Source: Escherichia coli (GTDB taxonomy: Bacteria > Pseudomonadota > Gammaproteobacteria > Enterobacterales > Enterobacteriaceae). From it: 64,000 nucleotides of DNA. Below, piece by piece: positions 3,340-32,860 of this stretch (positions are counted from its first letter, which is position 1; every line of letters begins with the position of its first letter). The stretch lies in assembly GCF_030013595.1 (NCBI RefSeq), contig NZ_CP122771.1; one strand, given 5' to 3'. A model generated the notes under the pieces. The model saw only the letters and a program-made list of their open reading frames with translations. It was not told the DNA's origin and made no database searches. A program made the translations under genes and the position numbers.

Positions 3340-5967
3340 GTGAATAACCCACTTGAGGCCGTCACTCAGGCGGTTAACTCCCTCGTCACAGCACTGAAAC
3401 TGCCTGACGAATCCGCAAAGGCCAATGAAGTTCTGGGCGAAATGAGCTTCCCGCAGTTCAGCCGTCTGCTGCCGTACCGTGATTATAACCAGGAATCCGG
3501 TCTGTTCATGAATGACACCACGATGGGCTTTATGCTGGAAGCCATTCCCATCAATGGGGCGAATGAGTCTATTGTGGAGGCGCTCGACCACATGCTGCGC
3601 ACCAAACTGCCGCGCGGAGTGCCGTTCTGCATCCATCTGATGTCCAGTCAGCTTGTTGGTGACAGAATTGAATACGGGCTGCGTGAGTTCTCCTGGTCCG
3701 GTGAACAGGCTGAACGGTTTAACGCCATTACCCGTGCCTATTATATGAACGCGGCAGCGACACAGTTTCCGCTGCCGGAGGGGATGAATCTGCCCCTGAC
3801 CCTGCGCCATTACCGGGTATTCTTCTCGTACTGTTCTCCCTCGAAGAAAAAAAGCCGGGCTGACATTCTGGAAATGGAAAACCTGGTGAAAATCATCCGG
3901 GCGTCGTTACAGGGGGCCAGTATCACCACACAGGCGGTGGATGCACAGGCCTTTATCGATATTGTCGGGGAGATGATTAACCATAACCCGGACTCCCTGT
4001 ATCCGAAAAGACGTCAGCTGGACCCGTATTCTGATCTGAATTATCAGTGTGTGGAGGACAGTTTTGACCTGAAAGTCCGGGCGGATTACCTGACGCTGGG
4101 CCTGCGTGAGAACGGCAGGAACAGCACGGCCCGCATCCTGAATTTCCATCTGGCCCGTAACCCGGAAATCGCCTTTCTGTGGAACATGGCCGACAACTAC
4201 AGCAACCTGCTGAACCCGGAACTGTCCATCTCCTGTCCGTTCATCCTGACGCTGACTCTGGTGGTGGAAGACCAGGTGAAAACTCACAGCGAAGCCAACC
4301 TGAAGTACATGGACCTGGAGAAAAAGTCGAAGACCTCCTATGCCAAATGGTTTCCGTCCGTGGAGAAAGAGGCGAAGGAGTGGGGGGAACTGCGTCAGCG
4401 GCTGGGCTCCGGTCAGTCCTCTGTCGTGTCCTACTTCCTCAACATCACAGCATTCTGCAAGGACAATAATGAAACGGCGCTGGAAGTGGAGCAGGACATC
4501 CTGAACAGCTTCCGTAAAAACGGTTTTGAGCTGATTTCACCGCGCTTTAACCACATGCGCAATTTCCTGACCTGTCTGCCCTTTATGGCCGGGAAAGGGT
4601 TGTTTAAACAGCTGAAAGAGGCCGGAGTGGTACAGCGCGCAGAGAGCTTTAATGTGGCCAACCTGATGCCGTTAGTGGCGGATAACCCCCTGACACCGGC
4701 AGGTCTGCTGGCACCCACCTACCGTAACCAGCTGGCGTTTATCGATATTTTCTTCCGGGGGATGAATAACACCAACTACAACATGGCGGTCTGTGGCACC
4801 TCCGGGGCCGGTAAAACCGGGCTGATACAGCCACTTATCCGCAGCGTGCTGGACTCCGGGGGCTTTGCCGTGGTGTTCGACATGGGGGATGGCTACAAGT
4901 CCCTGTGTGAGAACATGGGCGGGGTGTATCTGGACGGTGAAACCCTGCGTTTTAACCCGTTTGCGAACATCACCGATATTGACCAGTCAGCGGAGCGTGT
5001 CCGCGACCAGTTGTCGGTGATGGCCAGCCCCAACGGTAACCTGGATGAAGTGCATGAAGGTCTGCTGCTGCAGGCGGTCAGGGCCTCCTGGCTGGCTAAA
5101 AAGAATAAGGCGCGCATCGATGATGTGGTGGATTTCCTGAAAAACGCCCGTGATAACGACCAGTATGTAGAGTCACCGACTATCCGCAGCCGTCTGGACG
5201 AAATGATTGTGCTGCTTGACCAGTACACTGCTAACGGCACTTATGGCCAGTATTTCAACTCCGATGAGCCGTCCCTGCGGGATGATGCGAAAATGGTGGT
5301 GCTGGAGCTGGGCGGACTGGAAGACCGTCCGTCCCTGCTGGTTGCGGTGATGTTCAGCCTTATCATTTACATTGAGAACCGGATGTACCGCACGCCGCGT
5401 AACCTCAAGAAACTGAACGTTATTGATGAAGGCTGGCGTCTGCTGGACTTCAAAAATCACAAGGTCGGTGAATTTATTGAGAAAGGCTACCGTACGGCCC
5501 GCCGTCATACCGGTGCCTATATCACCATCACACAGAACATCGTCGACTTTGACTCTGATAAGGCCTCCAGTGCTGCCCGCGCGGCATGGGGTAACTCCTC
5601 CTACAAAATTATCCTCAAACAGAGTGCGAAGGAGTTCGCGAAATACAACCAGCTGTATCCGGACCAGTTCCTGCCACTGCAGCGCGACATGATTGGTAAG
5701 TTTGGTGCAGCCAAAGACCAGTGGTTCAGTTCCTTCCTGCTGCAGGTGGAAAACCATTCCTCCTGGCACCGTCTGTTTGTGGACCCGTTAAGCCGCGCCA
5801 TGTACAGCTCTGACGGCCCGGATTTTGAGTTTGTGCAGCAGAAGCGTAAAGAGGGGCTGAGTATTCATGAGGCAGTGTGGCAGCTGGCGTGGAAGAAGTC
5901 AGGGCCGGAGATGGCTTCGCTGGAAGCCTGGCTGGAAGAACATGAGAAATACAGGAGTGTGGCATGA
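3340..5967 (+). CDS. traC: TraC, VirB4-like T4SS ATPase
   Basis: 875 aa, GTG start; Walker A GTSGAGKTG; synteny. Confidence 0.95.
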   Translation: MNNPLEAVTQAVNSLVTALKLPDESAKANEVLGEMSFPQFSRLLPYRDYNQESGLFMNDTTMGFMLEAIPINGANESIVEALDHMLRTKLPRGVPFCIHLMSSQLVGDRIEYGLREFSWSGEQAERFNAITRAYYMNAAATQFPLPEGMNLPLTLRHYRVFFSYCSPSKKKSRADILEMENLVKIIRASLQGASITTQAVDAQAFIDIVGEMINHNPDSLYPKRRQLDPYSDLNYQCVEDSFDLKVRADYLTLGLRENGRNSTARILNFHLARNPEIAFLWNMADNYSNLLNPELSISCPFILTLTLVVEDQVKTHSEANLKYMDLEKKSKTSYAKWFPSVEKEAKEWGELRQRLGSGQSSVVSYFLNITAFCKDNNETALEVEQDILNSFRKNGFELISPRFNHMRNFLTCLPFMAGKGLFKQLKEAGVVQRAESFNVANLMPLVADNPLTPAGLLAPTYRNQLAFIDIFFRGMNNTNYNMAVCGTSGAGKTGLIQPLIRSVLDSGGFAVVFDMGDGYKSLCENMGGVYLDGETLRFNPFANITDIDQSAERVRDQLSVMASPNGNLDEVHEGLLLQAVRASWLAKKNKARIDDVVDFLKNARDNDQYVESPTIRSRLDEMIVLLDQYTANGTYGQYFNSDEPSLRDDAKMVVLELGGLEDRPSLLVAVMFSLIIYIENRMYRTPRNLKKLNVIDEGWRLLDFKNHKVGEFIEKGYRTARRHTGAYITITQNIVDFDSDKASSAARAAWGNSSYKIILKQSAKEFAKYNQLYPDQFLPLQRDMIGKFGAAKDQWFSSFLLQVENHSSWHRLFVDPLSRAMYSSDGPDFEFVQQKRKEGLSIHEAVWQLAWKKSGPEMASLEAWLEEHEKYRSVA

Positions 5968-6350
5968 GTTCAACGCAGAAACCCGCCGACGTCACGGCAG
6001 AACGACGCAGCCACTGGTGGTGGACGGTGCCGGGATGCCTGGCAATGGTGTTACTGAACGCAGCCGTCAGTTACGGCATTGTCAGACTGAATGCACCGGT
6101 GACTGTCGCCTTCAACATGAAACAGACCGTGGATGCGTTTTTTGACAGCGCCAGTCAGAAACAACTGTCAGAAGCGCAGTCAAAAGCCCTTTCAGCGCGT
6201 TTTAACACGGCACTGGAAGCCAGCCTGCAGGCGTGGCAGCAGAAACACCACGCGGTCATTCTGGTGTCGCCTGCTGTGGTACAGGGGGCACCGGATATCA
6301 CCCGGGAAATCCAGCAGGATATTGCCCGGCGAATGAGGGCGGAACCATGA
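5964..6350 (+). CDS. trbI: TrbI
   Basis: 128 aa with TM segment; overlapping stop/start with traC and traW. Confidence 0.8.
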   Translation: MSSTQKPADVTAERRSHWWWTVPGCLAMVLLNAAVSYGIVRLNAPVTVAFNMKQTVDAFFDSASQKQLSEAQSKALSARFNTALEASLQAWQQKHHAVILVSPAVVQGAPDITREIQQDIARRMRAEP

Positions 6351-6979
6351 GATGCCGGGGGCTGATTGCCCTGCTGATATGGGGGCAGAGTGTGGCCGCC
6401 GCCGATCTTGGTACCTGGGGCGATCTGTGGCCGGTAAAGGAGCCGGACATGCTGACGGTGATCATGCAGCGCCTGACGGCACTGGAGCTGTCCGGTGAGA
6501 TGGGCCGGAAAATGGATGTCTTTAAGGAGCGGGTGATCCGCAACAGTCTGCGGCCCCCTGCCGTGCCCGGTATCGGACGCACGGAGAAATACGGTAGCCG
6601 GTTGTTTGACCCGTCCGTCAGACTGGCTGCGGATATCCGGGATAACGAAGGGCGGGTGTTTGCCCGTCAGGGTGAAGTGATGAATCCGCTGCAGTATGTT
6701 CCTTTTAACCAGACGCTGTATTTCATCAATGGCGATGATCCGGCGCAGGTGGCCTGGATGAAACGCCAGACGCCGCCCACACTGGAGAGCAAAATCATCC
6801 TCGTGCAGGGCAGTATCCCGGAGATGCAGAAGTCTCTGGACAGCCGTGTTTACTTTGACCAGAACGGTGTGCTCTGCCAGCGCCTCGGCATTGATCAGGT
6901 CCCGGCACGGGTGAGCGCCGTTCCCGGCGATCGCTTCCTGAAGGTGGAATTTATTCCGGCAGAGGAGGGCAGAAAATGA
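6347..6979 (+). CDS. traW: TraW, pilus assembly protein
   Basis: ATG at 6347 (MRCRGLIALLIWGQSVAA signal peptide); synteny. Confidence 0.85.
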   Translation: MRCRGLIALLIWGQSVAAADLGTWGDLWPVKEPDMLTVIMQRLTALELSGEMGRKMDVFKERVIRNSLRPPAVPGIGRTEKYGSRLFDPSVRLAADIRDNEGRVFARQGEVMNPLQYVPFNQTLYFINGDDPAQVAWMKRQTPPTLESKIILVQGSIPEMQKSLDSRVYFDQNGVLCQRLGIDQVPARVSAVPGDRFLKVEFIPAEEGRK

Positions 6980-7968
6980 AGCGAAGCCTGTGGCTGCTGA
7001 TGTTATTCCTTCTCGCCGGTCATGTCCCTGCAGCGTCTGCGGATTCTGCCTGTGAGGGGCGTTTTGTAAACCCGATCACGGATATCTGCTGGAGCTGTAT
7101 TTTCCCGCTCTCGCTGGGCAGTATCAAAGTCAGTCAGGGTAAGGTCCCCGACACGGCGAACCCGTCGATGCCCATTCAGATTTGTCCGGCACCGCCGCCG
7201 CTGTTCAGGCGTATCGGGCTGGCCATTGGTTACTGGGAGCCGATGGCGCTGACGGACGTCACCCGGTCACCGGGATGCATGGTGAACCTGGGCTTCAGCC
7301 TGCCGGCTTTTGGTAAAACGGCACAGGGAACGGCGAAAAAAGATGAGAAGCAGGTGAACGGGGCGTTCTATCACGTTCACTGGTACAAATACCCGCTGAC
7401 GTACTGGCTTAACATCATCACATCGCTGGGCTGTCTGGAAGGTGGTGACCTGGATATCGCTTATCTTTCTGAAATTGACCCCACCTGGACGGACAGCAGC
7501 CTGACCACCATTCTCAATCCGGAAGCTGTCATCTTTGCCAATCCGATAGCACAGGGAGCCTGCGCAGCAGATGCGATTGCCAGCGCCTTTAATATGCCTC
7601 TCGATGTTCTGTTCTGGTGTGCCGGTTCGCAGGGAAGTATGTACCCGTTCAATGGCTGGGTGAGTAATGAGTCCAGTCCGTTGCAGTCCTCCCTGCTGGT
7701 CAGTGAACGCATGGCGTTCAAGCTGCACCGTCAGGGCATGATTATGGAAACCATCGGGAAAAATAACGCCGTCTGTAATGAATATCCGTCCCCAATCCTG
7801 CCCAAAGAACGCTGGCGTTACCAGATGGTGAATATGTATCCGGACAGCGGGCAGTGCCACCCGTTCGGGCGCAGCGTGACCCGCTGGGAAACCGGGAAAA
7901 ATCCGCCCAACACAAAGAAAAACTTCGGCTACCTGATGTGGCGTAAACGTAACTGTGTTTTCCTGTAA
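6976..7968 (+). CDS. traU: TraU, pilus assembly/DNA transfer protein
   Basis: 330 aa with signal peptide; synteny. Confidence 0.9.
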   Translation: MKRSLWLLMLFLLAGHVPAASADSACEGRFVNPITDICWSCIFPLSLGSIKVSQGKVPDTANPSMPIQICPAPPPLFRRIGLAIGYWEPMALTDVTRSPGCMVNLGFSLPAFGKTAQGTAKKDEKQVNGAFYHVHWYKYPLTYWLNIITSLGCLEGGDLDIAYLSEIDPTWTDSSLTTILNPEAVIFANPIAQGACAADAIASAFNMPLDVLFWCAGSQGSMYPFNGWVSNESSPLQSSLLVSERMAFKLHRQGMIMETIGKNNAVCNEYPSPILPKERWRYQMVNMYPDSGQCHPFGRSVTRWETGKNPPNTKKNFGYLMWRKRNCVFL

Positions 7969-7993
7969 AACTACTAATTCTGAAGGATTTTTT

Positions 7994-8455
7994 ATGTATA
8001 AACAGGCAACAGAATTAATGCTGAACTTTAAAGACCGCATTCTGATTAAGGGGGAAGAAGATACCGGCAAGTCAACTCTCCTGACTGAAATAAGAATCAG
8101 TGATAGTGATTCCCGGTATTACAACTTTAAAACTCTTAACTCTGCGGGGTATAACCAGCTTTGTGATGAAAATATTGATGATTTTGATTTTCTGAATACA
8201 CCTGAAAAGACGTTAATCCTTGATGGAGTCAGGCTGTGTGAAAAGAAAATGACATCAAAAGTTATCAGGTTAATTAAACAGGCCAGAAAATATCATAAAC
8301 GCCTGGTTGTGGTTGCAGACTCATGTGAGTCTGAGTTTATCGAACTGTTGTTTGATGGTGTTATTGCATTGTCCTTCAATTCTGACAGAGAAAGGAGCTG
8401 CAATGTTTATACGCCATCAAGGTGTCGTAATACAGATAATATTTATGCCAGGTAA
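7994..8455 (+). CDS. Hypothetical small P-loop NTPase/kinase-like protein, non-canonical insert in tra operon
   Basis: 154 aa; Walker A-like GEEDTGKST and Walker B-like LILDG; AAGGA 8 nt upstream of ATG; AT-rich relative to flanks; paralog of ORF 32396-32860. Confidence 0.5.
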   Translation: MYKQATELMLNFKDRILIKGEEDTGKSTLLTEIRISDSDSRYYNFKTLNSAGYNQLCDENIDDFDFLNTPEKTLILDGVRLCEKKMTSKVIRLIKQARKYHKRLVVVADSCESEFIELLFDGVIALSFNSDRERSCNVYTPSRCRNTDNIYAR

Positions 8456-8484
8456 ATGTGTAAACAAAAACAGAGGAGGGTGTA

Positions 8485-8937
8485 ATGAGTAATAATATAA
8501 AATATGGCTCCAGAATACTTGATATGGGTGTTCTGCTGGAGATGAAAGCGCTTGTGAATGCAAATGGTGGTGTGTCACGGTGCATTATGGAGTGCCGGCA
8601 GCTTGCCTGTGAGGTCCGTCATTCGCAACAATTACTGGATAAGCTGTCATGTATTGACGACTGGCTGTGCCGGTTTTCCTCAATAATGTATCACCGTTTT
8701 GATAAAGAACAGATTCAGTGGCGGGAGGATGTGGACAGGAATTATCCCAGAGAAAAAGTTTATATTTTCAGTCCCGATGATGTCTCCGTCCATAATAATG
8801 ATATTAAAGACTCTGCCAATAACACATCAGGAATAACCGTGTCGGTTACAGCCAGTAAAATATTTGCAGGTCAGAAAGAGTTTGATGCTTTTTTAAAACT
8901 GGCAGAAAAACTGAGAGAAAACCCTACGGGTAATTAA
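8485..8937 (+). CDS. Hypothetical protein, second gene of traU-trbC insert
   Basis: 150-aa ORF with GGAGG-like RBS (cagaggagggtgtaATG); Cys-rich N-terminal half; no motif recognised. Confidence 0.45.
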   Translation: MSNNIKYGSRILDMGVLLEMKALVNANGGVSRCIMECRQLACEVRHSQQLLDKLSCIDDWLCRFSSIMYHRFDKEQIQWREDVDRNYPREKVYIFSPDDVSVHNNDIKDSANNTSGITVSVTASKIFAGQKEFDAFLKLAEKLRENPTGN

Positions 8938-8964
8938 ATTGTAATAATGCCATCAGGATATATC

Positions 8965-9603
8965 ATGAACTGGAAAATATTTGCACTTTTTGCCCTGACT
9001 GCAGGAATGCATATCACTGTTCATGCCTCAGACAATGTGAACACTCCTGAAAACCGCCAGTTCCTGAAGCAGCAGGAAAATTTAAGCAGACAACTGCGTG
9101 AAAAACCTGACCATCAGCTGAAGGCCTGGGCGGAGAAACAGGTGCTGGAGAACCCCCTTCAGCGTTCAGATAACCATTTCCTGGATGAGCTGGTTCGTAA
9201 ACAGCAGGCTTCGCAGGACGGGAAACCCCGGCAGGGGGCCCTGTATTTTGTGTCGTTTTCCATTCCCGAAGAGGGGCTGAAACGGATGCTGGGCGAAACC
9301 CGGCACTACGGTATACCCGCCACACTGCGGGGCATGGTGAACAATGACCTGAAGACCACCGCTGAAGCCGTGCTGTCCCTGGTGAAAGACGGCGCGACTG
9401 ATGGTGTTCAGATCGACCCGACGCTGTTTTCACAGTACGGCATTCGCAGCGTACCGACACTGGTGGTGTTCTGCAGTCAGGGATACGACATCATCCGGGG
9501 AAACCTGCGGGTCGGCCAGGCGCTGGAGAAAGTGGCCGCCACGGGTGACTGCCGGCAGGTGGCTCATGATTTACTGGCAGGGAAAGGAGATTCCGGGAAA
9601 TGA
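8965..9603 (+). CDS. trbC: TrbC, pilus assembly periplasmic protein
   Basis: Signal peptide MNWKIFALFALTAGMHITVHA then ...NVNTPENRQFLKQQENL matching F TrbC; ORF opens at 8947 but the ATG at 8965 has the better RBS. Confidence 0.85.
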   Translation: MNWKIFALFALTAGMHITVHASDNVNTPENRQFLKQQENLSRQLREKPDHQLKAWAEKQVLENPLQRSDNHFLDELVRKQQASQDGKPRQGALYFVSFSIPEEGLKRMLGETRHYGIPATLRGMVNNDLKTTAEAVLSLVKDGATDGVQIDPTLFSQYGIRSVPTLVVFCSQGYDIIRGNLRVGQALEKVAATGDCRQVAHDLLAGKGDSGK

Positions 9604-11450
9604 AACGTATGTTACCTCTGATACTGGCTCTGGTTGCCGGCATGGCACAGGCTGACAGCAACAGTGATTACCGGGCCGGTTCTGATTTTGCTCACCAGAT
9701 CAAAGGACAGGGAAGCAGCAGTATTCAGGGCTTTAAGCCACAGGAGAGTATCCCCGGCTATAACGCGCATCCGGACGAGACAAAATATTACGGTGGCGTG
9801 ACTGCCGGCGGGGATGGCGGCCTGAAAAATGACGGCACCACGGAATGGGCGACCGGTGAAACCGGAAAAACCATCACAGAGTCCTTCATGAACAAGCCGA
9901 AAGACATTCTTTCACCGGATGCACCGTTCATTCAGACCGGCAGGGATGTGGTGAACCGGGCTGACAGCATTGTGGGAAACACAGGCCAGCAGTGTAGTGC
10001 ACAGCAGATAAACCGCAGTGAATTCACAAACTATACCTGTGAACGGGACACGATGGTGGAGGAGTATTGCACACGGACTGCCAGGATCACCGGAGACTGG
10101 AAATACACAGATGAATATCGTGAGGTGACGATACCGCACTCACAGTTCCGGTTCAGTATGAACGGGCTGAAACTGGTGTTCAGTGTCACGGCTCCGGTAA
10201 CCGGTACAGTGGAAAGTGCATCATTGTCTGTATACGCCGCTTTTTTCTTCCTGAACTCTCGTTATACCTTCATGAATTCAACGTTCAATGTTGGCCTGGT
10301 AAACGGGCAGTCGGGTACTTTCCCCCTGTCCGGGGCGACAGGTTTGCAGGTGACACAAGGGCAGGTTCTGACCGGCAGTGGCTGTACTGCTAACGGTAAC
10401 TGTCTTTCTGGCGGGAACGGTGACCGACAGGTTTATGAGAAACTGGCCAGCGGCGCGTCCACCTTTACACTGAAACTCAGGATGAAGGTCCGTGATAAAG
10501 AATGGGTTCCACGGGTGGAGTGGGTGGAGAGTTGTCCGTTTAATAAAGCGGATGGCGTGCTGAAAGGCACTGAGTGTTCAGAGCCGGGTGGTACGAAAAC
10601 TGGTGTGATGGAAGGTAAACCCTGGAGCATCACACAGGCGTGCTGGGCATACCGGGATAAATATGTCACACAGTCCGCAGATAATGGTACCTGTCAGAAA
10701 TATGTCGATAATCCGGCCTGTACGCTGGCCTCACGTCAGTGCGCGTTTTATTCCGATGAGGGAACCTGTCTGCATGAGTATGCCACGTACTCCTGCGAGT
10801 CAAAAACATCAGGAAAAGTGATGGTCTGTGGTGGTGATGTCTTCTGCCTTGACGGTGAATGCGATAAGGCGCAGAGCGGAAAAAACAGTGATTTTGGTGC
10901 AGCCGTATCACAGCTGGCTGCGCTTGCCGCTGCTGGTAAGGATGTTGCCGCCCTGAATGGTGTGGATGTCAGGGCTTTCACCGGCGAGGCGAAATTCTGC
11001 CGTAAGGCCGCAGCCGGCTTCAGTAACTGCTGTAAGGATGGTGGCTGGGGTCAGGATGTGGGTCTGGCGAAGTGTAACAGTGAAGAAAAGGCGCTGGGAA
11101 AGGCAAAGGACAACAAACTGACGGTGAGTGTTGGCGAGTTCTGTTCGAAAAAGGTACTCGGTGTCTGCCTGCAGAAAAAGCGCAGCTACTGCCAGTTTGA
11201 TTCGAAACTGGCGCAGATAGTCCAGCAGCAGGGGCGTAACGGGCAGCTGCGTATCGGGTTTGGCAGCGCCAAAAGTCCTGACTGTCGTGGAATAACCGTG
11301 GATGAACTGCAGCGTATTAAGTTCGACCAGCTGGACTTCACTAACTTCTACGAAGACCTGATGAATAACCAGAAAATCCCGGACAGTGGTGTTCTGACGC
11401 AGAAAGTGAAAGAACAGATTGCTGACCAGCTGAAACAGGCAGGACAGTAA
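9600..11450 (+). CDS. traN: TraN, outer-membrane mating-pair stabilisation protein
   Basis: 616 aa, signal peptide, Cys-rich C-terminal region; synteny. Confidence 0.9.
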   Translation: MKRMLPLILALVAGMAQADSNSDYRAGSDFAHQIKGQGSSSIQGFKPQESIPGYNAHPDETKYYGGVTAGGDGGLKNDGTTEWATGETGKTITESFMNKPKDILSPDAPFIQTGRDVVNRADSIVGNTGQQCSAQQINRSEFTNYTCERDTMVEEYCTRTARITGDWKYTDEYREVTIPHSQFRFSMNGLKLVFSVTAPVTGTVESASLSVYAAFFFLNSRYTFMNSTFNVGLVNGQSGTFPLSGATGLQVTQGQVLTGSGCTANGNCLSGGNGDRQVYEKLASGASTFTLKLRMKVRDKEWVPRVEWVESCPFNKADGVLKGTECSEPGGTKTGVMEGKPWSITQACWAYRDKYVTQSADNGTCQKYVDNPACTLASRQCAFYSDEGTCLHEYATYSCESKTSGKVMVCGGDVFCLDGECDKAQSGKNSDFGAAVSQLAALAAAGKDVAALNGVDVRAFTGEAKFCRKAAAGFSNCCKDGGWGQDVGLAKCNSEEKALGKAKDNKLTVSVGEFCSKKVLGVCLQKKRSYCQFDSKLAQIVQQQGRNGQLRIGFGSAKSPDCRGITVDELQRIKFDQLDFTNFYEDLMNNQKIPDSGVLTQKVKEQIADQLKQAGQ

Positions 11451-20252: not shown

Positions 20253-20358
20253 CCCGGCGTTTCCGAAATAAATATGAAAACACTGAGCGGTTGTGCAAAT
20301 TCTTTGTGCGACCGTGAAGTGTTGCCGGCGAAGCCGGGATCTTCCGGAGAAAGTCATT

Positions 20359-21096
20359 ATGACATCAGACAATATCGCTGAATATGTTGGTGAGAATAAT
20401 CAATTTACTGAGAAGCCTGTAACTGAATACCCCCCGGTGATACAGGATAATACAGTGACCACTAAAGACTATCTGTACAGCAATAATATTGATACTGACC
20501 TTTTAGTGGTTATCGGAGGGCTTATTGTTATATTGTTTCTCATGATGCTTATCATGTACTTTATTAATTCTCTCAGGCATAAGGAATTAACTGAAATACT
20601 GACAAAAATATCTTTTCCTGAAAAATCCGGGAGCAATTCGCTTAAACCGGAAGCGGTCAGCTGTAATTTGTTGTCCCTGTGTGTGCTGGCACCGGTATTC
20701 TTTACACCCAGAAAGCTGGCTGAAGTTTCCAGGGAGATCATCGTGGCGAGTGCGCAGGAAATTGCATGGACGCCGGGGAGCAGTCGTATTGATGGCCACC
20801 AGGCGGAGAATATCACCTGGGCGATTTCATCGCAGTCTCCTGCCGATAAGTATGATCTCATCAATAAAACCTCCCGTGTTTCTCCTGACAGTGGCCGTTT
20901 TTATGAACCGGACACAGTTCTGGATCACCGTGAACGGGTACGCCTTTTTATTCAGATCCAGTTTCCGCATGGGAGTGACTGGTCTGAAGTATTGCGCCTG
21001 ACTGACATTGTTACAGAGAAGGTCTCTTCCGGCAGGGCTGCAGGCGGGTATCACCACCGACATACAGGGTACACCTGGTCTGTTTCTGTGAATTAA
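20359..21096 (+). CDS. Hypothetical membrane-anchored protein inserted between traT and traD
   Basis: 246 aa from ATG 20359 with one TM helix ([22 protein letters not shown]); GGAG-type RBS; not part of canonical F gene order. Confidence 0.4.
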
Positions 21097-32395: not shown

Positions 32396-32860
32396 ATGAA
32401 ATATGATGATGTATCAGAATTGATGATTAAGCGTGAACACAATATTCTTATTATGGGGAATTCTGCCTCCCACATTGATAAATTTTTTAAGGGATATTCT
32501 ATACCAGGTTCTAAATATTATGATTTCACTCAGATTAACAGTGATTCAGATGTAGAGAGAAATGAGCATGCTGTCTCATTTATCAGGGATGCAATGAATA
32601 GTGAAGAGCACACAATCATTTTTAATTGTGTTGGGTGGCATGATTTAGGTGGTGGATCAGCAGTATCACAGTTTGCAATGATGGTCAGAAAATTTGGTAA
32701 ACAACTTATTGTCGCTGTAAGTGAAAAGGATGCCATCAAATTAAAAGATAACTTTAATATTATTGGAACGTTGTCATATGGTAAAGAAAATTTTATTGCC
32801 ATGAGTCATACGAAAAGCGAGTTAACTGGAGGGAAATGTCGGTACCGGATTAAAAATTGA
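32396..32860 (+). CDS. Hypothetical protein, degenerate-P-loop paralog of ORF 7994-8455
   Basis: 154 aa; aligns with 7994-8455 product (ELM, ILI.G, YY.F..NS, TLILDGV/TIIFNCVG, KRLVVVA/KQLIVAV) but Walker A replaced by GNSASHIDK; AT-rich. Confidence 0.45.
   Translation: MKYDDVSELMIKREHNILIMGNSASHIDKFFKGYSIPGSKYYDFTQINSDSDVERNEHAVSFIRDAMNSEEHTIIFNCVGWHDLGGGSAVSQFAMMVRKFGKQLIVAVSEKDAIKLKDNFNIIGTLSYGKENFIAMSHTKSELTGGKCRYRIKN

Follow-up and report, generated by a model that had tools for sequence, protein, structure and literature searches.

Between traU and trbC of an F-like transfer operon, the 64,000-nucleotide stretch of Escherichia coli DNA analysed here (contig NZ_CP122771.1; the whole stretch is referred to as the window) carries two small open reading frames (ORFs), ORF1 and ORF2. 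Comparison with related plasmids suggests, with a probability that we put at about 0.6, that the pair combines two modules of independent distribution, joined by a deletion, and is not a co-evolved two-gene system. The site itself, where traU and trbC meet in F-like plasmids, is an accessory slot prone to recombination, the usual occupant of which is an unnamed gene, here called M. Confidence in the anatomy and history of the cassette is high and confidence in its function is low; its most likely role, judged from gene neighbourhood and fold, would be a dispensable modulation of conjugation.

Origin of the ORF1-ORF2 arrangement

The longer arrangement from which that of the window can be derived is found in pF95-3, where the gene order is traU-ORF1-M-ORF2-trbC and all three slot genes are intact. 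Plasmid pEA25_2 has the same layout with a frameshifted M. Compared with these two, the window lacks 292 bp, and the sequences on either side of the gap meet at a 2-bp AT microhomology. The frame that contains the remnant of M (8307-8492) ends in the same C-terminus as a 111-amino acid (aa) protein of locus L002. An overlapping M-ORF2 pair, by which the M-ORF2 module of the slot is defined, is no longer present in the window, where only the last 16 codons of M remain. The remnant still supplies the ribosome-binding site of ORF2 and overlaps the start of ORF2 by 8 nucleotides (nt), as in the intact M-ORF2 pairs. The deletion also rewrote the C-terminus of ORF1 from NISPYK to NIYAR, a change that fits the unstructured and non-conserved tail of ORF1 in its AlphaFold model. 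In a spread sample of the matching records the M-less form accounts for approximately 85% of the cassette copies and is the commonest derivative. A different arrangement is seen in pLAO6, in which the same ORF1 (97.8% nucleotide identity) is followed by an internally deleted remnant of M and then by a distant allele of ORF2, designated ORF2'.

The preliminary description of this DNA presented the two ORFs as a discrete two-gene system, which is not borne out by their distribution. ORF2 occurs without ORF1 in loci L002, L003, L010 and L015, relatives of ORF1 occur without ORF2 in IncI2, IncX-like, IncP-like and virB-type plasmids, and the adjacency of the two genes in the window is a deletion product. 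A history in three steps would account for these arrangements. The slot would initially have held M, which in some lineages became coupled or fused to ORF2. The gene for the minimal P-loop protein, ORF1, would then have entered 5' of M to give traU-ORF1-M-ORF2-trbC, and the 292-bp microhomology deletion would finally have taken out M and made ORF1 and ORF2 neighbours.

The traU-trbC junction as an accessory slot

The junction was surveyed with a 600-bp query in which the 3' end of traU was joined to the 5' end of trbC, and 4,560 plasmid records were matched. The slot is empty in the F type, where the direct traU-trbC junction spans 608 bp for the 600-bp query. Many records have approximately 340 extra bp with one small gene annotated as "hypothetical protein". 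Besides direct junctions and M alone, the inserts range from approximately 0.6 kb to several kb. The states found are an empty slot, M, M with ORF2, an M-ORF2 fusion, ORF1 with M and ORF2, ORF1 with ORF2, and larger inserts. Among the last, C5 plasmid B (L003, NZ_CP010124) has a 253-aa orphan ORF and a TraP paralogue at 713-2089, followed by M and ORF2. The slot insert of pLAO6 (L013, NZ_OP242220; 593-4426) is 3.8 kb long and holds six ORFs, one of them on the opposite strand; its extra ORFs had no family match. Immediately 5' of ORF1 in pLAO6 the 3' end of traU is duplicated (2269-2475), which looks like the footprint of the recombination that moved ORF1.

The survey thus upheld the earlier view of the cassette as accessory and missing from F, and replaced the tight junction then assumed with a variable slot of many states. 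It had been stated that trbC directly follows traU in F and R100. This is correct for F-type plasmids, but in R100 a 101-aa ORF, which is a copy of M, lies between the two genes (NC_002134, 64037-64342), so the premise of a direct junction was wrong for that plasmid. Nor can the cassette be regarded as an insertion into a canonical, uninterrupted junction, as R100 and approximately 44% of the F-like records already hold a gene there. Genes between traU and trbC are not described in PMC5102898, PMC7555446, PMC10939261 or a 2026 preprint on the F-like transfer operon.

As first described, the DNA between traU and trbC has a lower GC content: 0.39 across the 996 bp of the slot versus 0.55 in traU and trbC. 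The GC content of third codon positions falls likewise, from 0.63-0.67 in the two flanking genes to 0.38-0.40 in the cassette. However, all occupants of the slot are AT-rich, including M of R100 (0.35 GC), so that low GC cannot date the insertion. AT-richness was ruled out as a proof of recent insertion also because the relatives of ORF1 are AT-rich in all four of the other plasmid backgrounds measured (approximately 0.34-0.37 GC in each).

Gene M and its link to ORF2

According to the hydropathy of the slot gene products, M encodes a protein of 101-114 aa with two hydrophobic segments. It was found by tblastn in at least 2,011 plasmid records, those of R100 and pSLT among them. The R100 copy corresponds to L024 4038-4343, and further copies lie at L020 630-935 and L022 619-927. 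The alleles are just 24-55% identical to each other, conservation being concentrated in the motifs LKLFPF, W and RLY. M had no family match in Pfam, NCBIfam or PADLOC, and no name or function was found for it.

M overlaps the start of ORF2 in L002, L003, L010-L012 and L023. In those of these loci that have no ORF1 (L002, L003 and L010-L012) ORF2 is located directly 3' of M, with an overlap of 8-11 nt. Moreover, locus L015, a Logan contig from SRR25250747, has two tandem M-type genes in the slot (4349-5539), the second of which is fused in frame to a distant relative of ORF2. The product, P0041, is a 259-aa protein with an M-type N-terminus and a C-terminal part that is approximately 30% identical to ORF2. 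Together with the translational coupling, the fusion provides good evidence for a joint action of M and ORF2. Judged by how charges are distributed in M, its two ends would lie on the cytoplasmic side of the inner membrane, and ORF2 with them. ORF2 may then be a cytoplasmic-face partner of M that has been orphaned in the window.

ORF1 and ORF2 are genes under selection

Two co-oriented ORFs between traU and trbC, as initially reported, were also obtained in the ORF and annotation check. PLSDB has 268-304 plasmid records in which the cassette is present with 95-100% identity. Nearly all are conjugative IncF plasmids of Escherichia; Salmonella, Shigella and Klebsiella contribute some. In these records ORF1 is annotated as "ATP-binding protein" and ORF2 as "hypothetical protein". 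Compared with diverged alleles, the ratio of non-synonymous to synonymous substitution rates (dN/dS) is 0.1-0.35 for ORF1 and 0.23-0.33 for ORF2; even among close copies it is below 0.5, although there the substitution counts are small. In the protein alignments of both ORFs the insertions and deletions are whole codons. On the basis of these sequence comparisons both are real genes under purifying selection, and their proposed coding nature is confirmed by frames that are intact in related plasmids, dN/dS below 1 and recognisable ribosome-binding sites.

The signal scan found no terminator-like site on the plus strand of the traU-trbC cassette. The sole promoter-like match on that strand (8939-8966) is weak (9/12) and lies 3' of ORF2. 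The simplest expectation is thus read-through from the tra promoter, by which ORF1 and ORF2 would be co-transcribed with the transfer genes.

Fold and motifs of the ORF1 protein

ORF1 carries a Walker A motif, GEEDTGKST (residues 20-28), in which G20, T24, G25, K26 and T28 do not vary among 12 members of the family. The Walker B-like motif is TLILDG, of which TLILD (residues 73-77) coincides with a predicted strand, and its D77 is invariant. Also conserved in the family are an invariant LCDEN motif and a helix of basic character, KxARKxxKRL. AlphaFold gave a good model (predicted local distance difference test score, pLDDT, 80; predicted template modelling score 0.79), the three-layer alpha/beta core of which superposes on solved RecA-type ATPases. 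Close structural neighbours in AFDB50 are only uncharacterised enterobacterial proteins of 140-180 aa. By its model, ORF1 belongs to the ASCE/RecA-like division as a minimal P-loop protein with a RecA fold. As such a small RecA-like core, it would be expected to bind and probably to hydrolyse a nucleoside triphosphate (NTP), and the invariant D58-E59 of LCDEN is a candidate site for the catalytic glutamate.

A minimal P-loop NTPase or a nucleotide kinase-like fold had been suggested for ORF1. The Walker motifs and the P-loop core agree with the former, but a nucleotide kinase was rejected on account of the RecA-type structural neighbours. A sequence-profile search of the PDB gave matches at the level of the P-loop only, including weak ones to guanylate kinase (E 0.006-0.013). 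Scans against Pfam, NCBIfam, PADLOC and PHROG with ORF1, ORF2, M, ORF2', the ORF1 paralogue mentioned below and other slot cargo likewise gave only generic P-loop matches.

The sequence searches place ORF1 in no specific family of the RecA superfamily. Its identity to the helicase domain of T7 gp4, the C-terminal domain of DnaB, KaiC, archaeal FlaH and RadA is 14-19%, and with 153 aa it has neither their DNA-binding loops nor their oligomerisation elements. Nor was a confident profile match to STAND or AAA+ proteins obtained: the match to Pfam AAA_14 has an E of 9.6e-4 on ORF1, and that to nSTAND3, on its relatives, is weak. In contrast to the large, multi-domain STAND proteins, ORF1 is a bare P-loop core, and its length leaves no room for the extra helical or sensor domains of STAND/AAA+ proteins.

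Relatives of ORF1 in other conjugative plasmids

The ORF1 family was found by tblastn in 740 plasmid records, 721 of which are conjugative. Approximately 277 of the records have the F-like form and 463 have relatives below 60% identity. A sample of the latter consisted, with two exceptions, of plasmids of approximately 37-67 kb with relatives at 42-43% identity, like that of the IncI2 locus L004. The IncI2 protein of R721 and of mcr-1 plasmids, annotated as YfdA or "ATP-binding protein", belongs to the same family as ORF1 (43% identity over 91% of the length) and shares with it the Walker A, Walker B, LCDEN and KRLIVV motifs. It differs in having an N-terminal extension, no ORF2 or M neighbour and another location, between the coupling protein and pilN; the function of either protein is undescribed. 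The annotation "sigma 54-interacting regulator", given to some of the IncI2 relatives while others read "YfdA", is wrong. In the transposon study of the IncI2 plasmid TP114 the gene order is traK directly followed by pilN, and there is no entry for the ORF1 homologue.

In IncX-like plasmids the relative is found 3' of the relaxase region, where it adjoins genes for an SNase-type nuclease, topoisomerase III (TopB), Hha and H-NS. In the IncP-like Tra1 operon it is situated between traF and a topoisomerase gene, 5' of an ArdC-primase gene. A Serratia plasmid has it just 5' of virB1, and in Providencia it adjoins topoisomerase III and H-NS. None of the non-F contexts examined has an ORF2 or M neighbour. 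In four transfer systems that are unrelated to each other, the relatives adjoin coupling proteins, topoisomerase III, nucleases and primases, which makes a target common to all conjugation probable. Judged by this neighbourhood, ORF1 probably acts in conjugative DNA processing, on transfer or coupling ATPases or in recipient establishment, these being likelier than F-pilus biogenesis.

The IncX-like contigs L005-L009 also contain a variable gene, located after the ORF1 relative and the SNase-family nuclease and before topoisomerase III, Hha and H-NS (approximately 6001-8462). It encodes a 420-aa AAA protein with a weak nSTAND3 match in some of the contigs and a PcfJ-like protein in others.

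The window itself contains another, diverged gene of the ORF1 family (32396-32860, plus strand; 154 aa; 23% identity by BLASTP, hhalign probability 97%). This paralogue is found between finO and repA, just 3' of a 197-aa ORF that resembles the DUF2726 protein of R100 at that position. The lysine of Walker A (GNSASHIDKF) and the aspartate of Walker B (IIFNC) are lost, and the protein is therefore probably non-catalytic. It matches approximately 800 plasmid records at E of 1e-5 or lower, mostly conjugative, and in 385 of these the match covers 80% or more of the protein.

The ORF2 protein

ORF2 represents a very small family. A profile run exhaustively against 1.84 billion representative proteins gave 14 matches, three of which are long repetitive proteins aligned over a short region only; the others, fragments included, are close relatives of ORF2 or of the distant allele ORF2'. 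All ORF2-family contexts examined are the traU-trbC slot of F-like plasmids. ORF2 had no match in Pfam, NCBIfam, PADLOC, PHROG or the PDB. Its predicted structure is poor (pLDDT 53), and Foldseek with this model found only an uncharacterised E. coli protein of 94% identity. The first impression that ORF2 has no recognisable motif thus stands, neither the profile nor the structure searches having given an informative relative. Its description as Cys-rich was overstated, as there are five cysteines in 150 residues and only that of an ECR motif is conserved in distant members. For the same reason ORF2 was rejected as a metal-binding Cys protein.

Possible functions of the cassette

F conjugates efficiently without ORF1, M and ORF2, and neither ORF1 nor ORF2 is thus needed for transfer. 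This agrees with the dispensable modulatory role favoured above, the functional part of which is based on gene neighbourhood and fold only; the comparisons also do not fix the direction in which ORF1 moved between plasmid groups. What weighs against the two genes being a composite is their repeated association. In every F-like arrangement found ORF1 adjoins a gene of the ORF2 family, and it does so in two very different allelic forms, that of the window and that of pLAO6, with its 30%-identical ORF2'. Furthermore, three of the four arrangements with ORF1 have an inactivated M, which is deleted in the window, internally deleted in pLAO6 and frameshifted in pEA25_2, while M is intact in all four arrangements that have ORF2 without ORF1. 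Purifying selection on ORF2 also persists in the M-less form. Adjacency in two forms and the pattern of M loss could mean that ORF1 and ORF2 cooperate, and ORF1 may have made M dispensable. On this view ORF1 would have replaced M as the partner of ORF2, and ORF1-ORF2 would be a working pair and a new variant of the slot module. We find this unlikely, since the independent events are few and no relative of ORF1 from another plasmid group has an ORF2-like gene beside it. The inactivation of M may also be a by-product, the deletions merely marking the tracts of the recombination that moved ORF1, in keeping with the duplicated traU end beside ORF1 in pLAO6. As doubtful is a broader proposal that combines this replacement with an unrecognised conjugation accessory factor, formed by the YfdA-like minimal RecA-fold ATPases across incompatibility groups. 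The target of these ATPases would then be the coupling-protein step, DNA processing or recipient establishment, with ORF1-ORF2 tuning transfer or protecting the incoming plasmid.

The pair might instead have no function at all, ORF2 and perhaps ORF1 having become, after the loss of M, neutral cargo of a successful plasmid lineage. The window form is indeed a deletion product, its copies are nearly identical to each other, as clonal spread predicts, pseudogenised copies of M exist in pEA25_2 and pLAO6, and F works without these genes. However, both ORFs are intact in approximately 270 records, both ribosome-binding sites have been kept and dN/dS is low even among the close copies, with the small counts given above, which makes neutral carriage quite unlikely. 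Self-contained defence, anti-defence or exclusion cargo of the tra operon, as originally proposed, would fit fast-evolving, AT-rich DNA in a variably occupied hotspot. ORF1 also weakly matches one NCBIfam anti-phage model (E 1.7e-5, with 22.8 bits where the cut-off is 790) and, in PADLOC-DB v2, mad8 (E 7.7e-4, over 43 residues) and PDC-S01 (E 0.024). But these matches span the P-loop only and are far below the curated cut-offs, so that they assign ORF1 to no system, and ORF2, M, ORF2' and the other slot cargo match no defence model. In addition, ORF1 and ORF2 occur separately, and AT-richness is common to every slot occupant, M of R100 included. As for exclusion, neither protein of the window has the membrane segment expected of a TraS-like protein (maximal Kyte-Doolittle value over 19 residues 1.08 for ORF1 and 0.86 for ORF2); M has hydrophobic segments such as an exclusion protein would need, but in the window it is deleted. 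From the sequences, such cargo is very unlikely. Two small neighbouring plasmid genes, one with weak guanylate kinase matches, also bring to mind an addiction pair of a P-loop kinase-like toxin and a small antidote. This is hardly credible, because the components are found apart instead of co-occurring obligately as in type II toxin-antitoxin systems, neither protein matches a toxin or antitoxin family, the structural neighbours of ORF1 are RecA-type cores and not kinases, and the adjacency of the genes was created by deletion.

Relation to known transfer genes

The closest kind of known gene is the small, non-essential ORF of F-like tra operons, such as trbA, trbE, trbF, trbJ, trbD, trbG and artA. 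Like the genes of the slot, such ORFs are often AT-rich, co-oriented and co-transcribed with the operon, variably present and dispensable for transfer, and M resembles their membrane-embedded products in size and topology. ORF1 is unlike them in being a soluble predicted NTPase that is common to non-F plasmids. In contrast to the named small Tra and Trb proteins, ORF1, ORF2 and M had no match among the Tra/Trb models of NCBIfam and Pfam, whereas the TraP paralogue of C5 plasmid B, which served as a positive control, scored 238 bits with the NCBIfam TraP model. Neither ORF is therefore a named tra or trb gene, as had been supposed, and the ORF1, ORF2 and M families have no described function in the libraries and papers searched. 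Uncharacterised ORFs, orfX1-4, have also been mentioned for pED208 (PMC10939261).

If the composite origin is correct, the finding is mainly a map of slot states at a recombination hotspot; by itself it is neither a new defence system nor a new mechanism. Its useful outputs are this map, the evidence from the M-ORF2 fusion and the distribution of the small ATPases over incompatibility groups. They draw attention to an unnamed gene that occupies the slot in approximately 44% of F-like plasmid records, R100 included, and to an ATPase family that recurs in transfer regions of conjugative plasmids of at least five kinds, among them the IncI2 plasmids that spread mcr-1.

Features of the locus

The operon around the cassette (window 3340-11450) is a typical F-like transfer operon with the order traC, trbI, traW, traU, ORF1, ORF2, trbC and traN. 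Coordinates are given in Table 1.

Table 1. Features in and next to the traU-trbC slot of the window.
Feature	Position	Strand	Remarks
traU	6976-7968	+	330-aa ORF; TraU by annotation of identical plasmids; upstream boundary of the slot
Shine-Dalgarno sequence AAGGA of ORF1	7983-7987	+	6 nt 5' of ATG; read from the sequence
ORF1	7994-8455	+	153 aa; predicted minimal RecA-fold P-loop protein; plasmid-specific YfdA-like family
Deletion junction	8441/8442	none	292 bp lost, 2-bp AT microhomology; alignment with pF95-3, pEA25_2 and C5 plasmid A
Remnant of the 3' end of M	8442-8492	+	last 16 codons, encoding ...FMPGKCVNKNRGGCNE before the stop codon
Shine-Dalgarno sequence GAGGAGG of ORF2	8473-8479	+	read from the sequence
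ORF2	8485-8937	+	150-aa soluble orphan protein
trbC	8965-9603	+	212 aa; TrbC, including its start, by annotation of identical plasmids; downstream boundary of the slot

Elsewhere in the window, the tra operon contains a further uncharacterised gene, a 267-aa ORF listed between traT and traD (20293-21096, plus strand). For the same ORF, the annotation of identical plasmids and of R100 gives a hypothetical protein of 245 aa (L001 23786-24523; L024 15463-16200).

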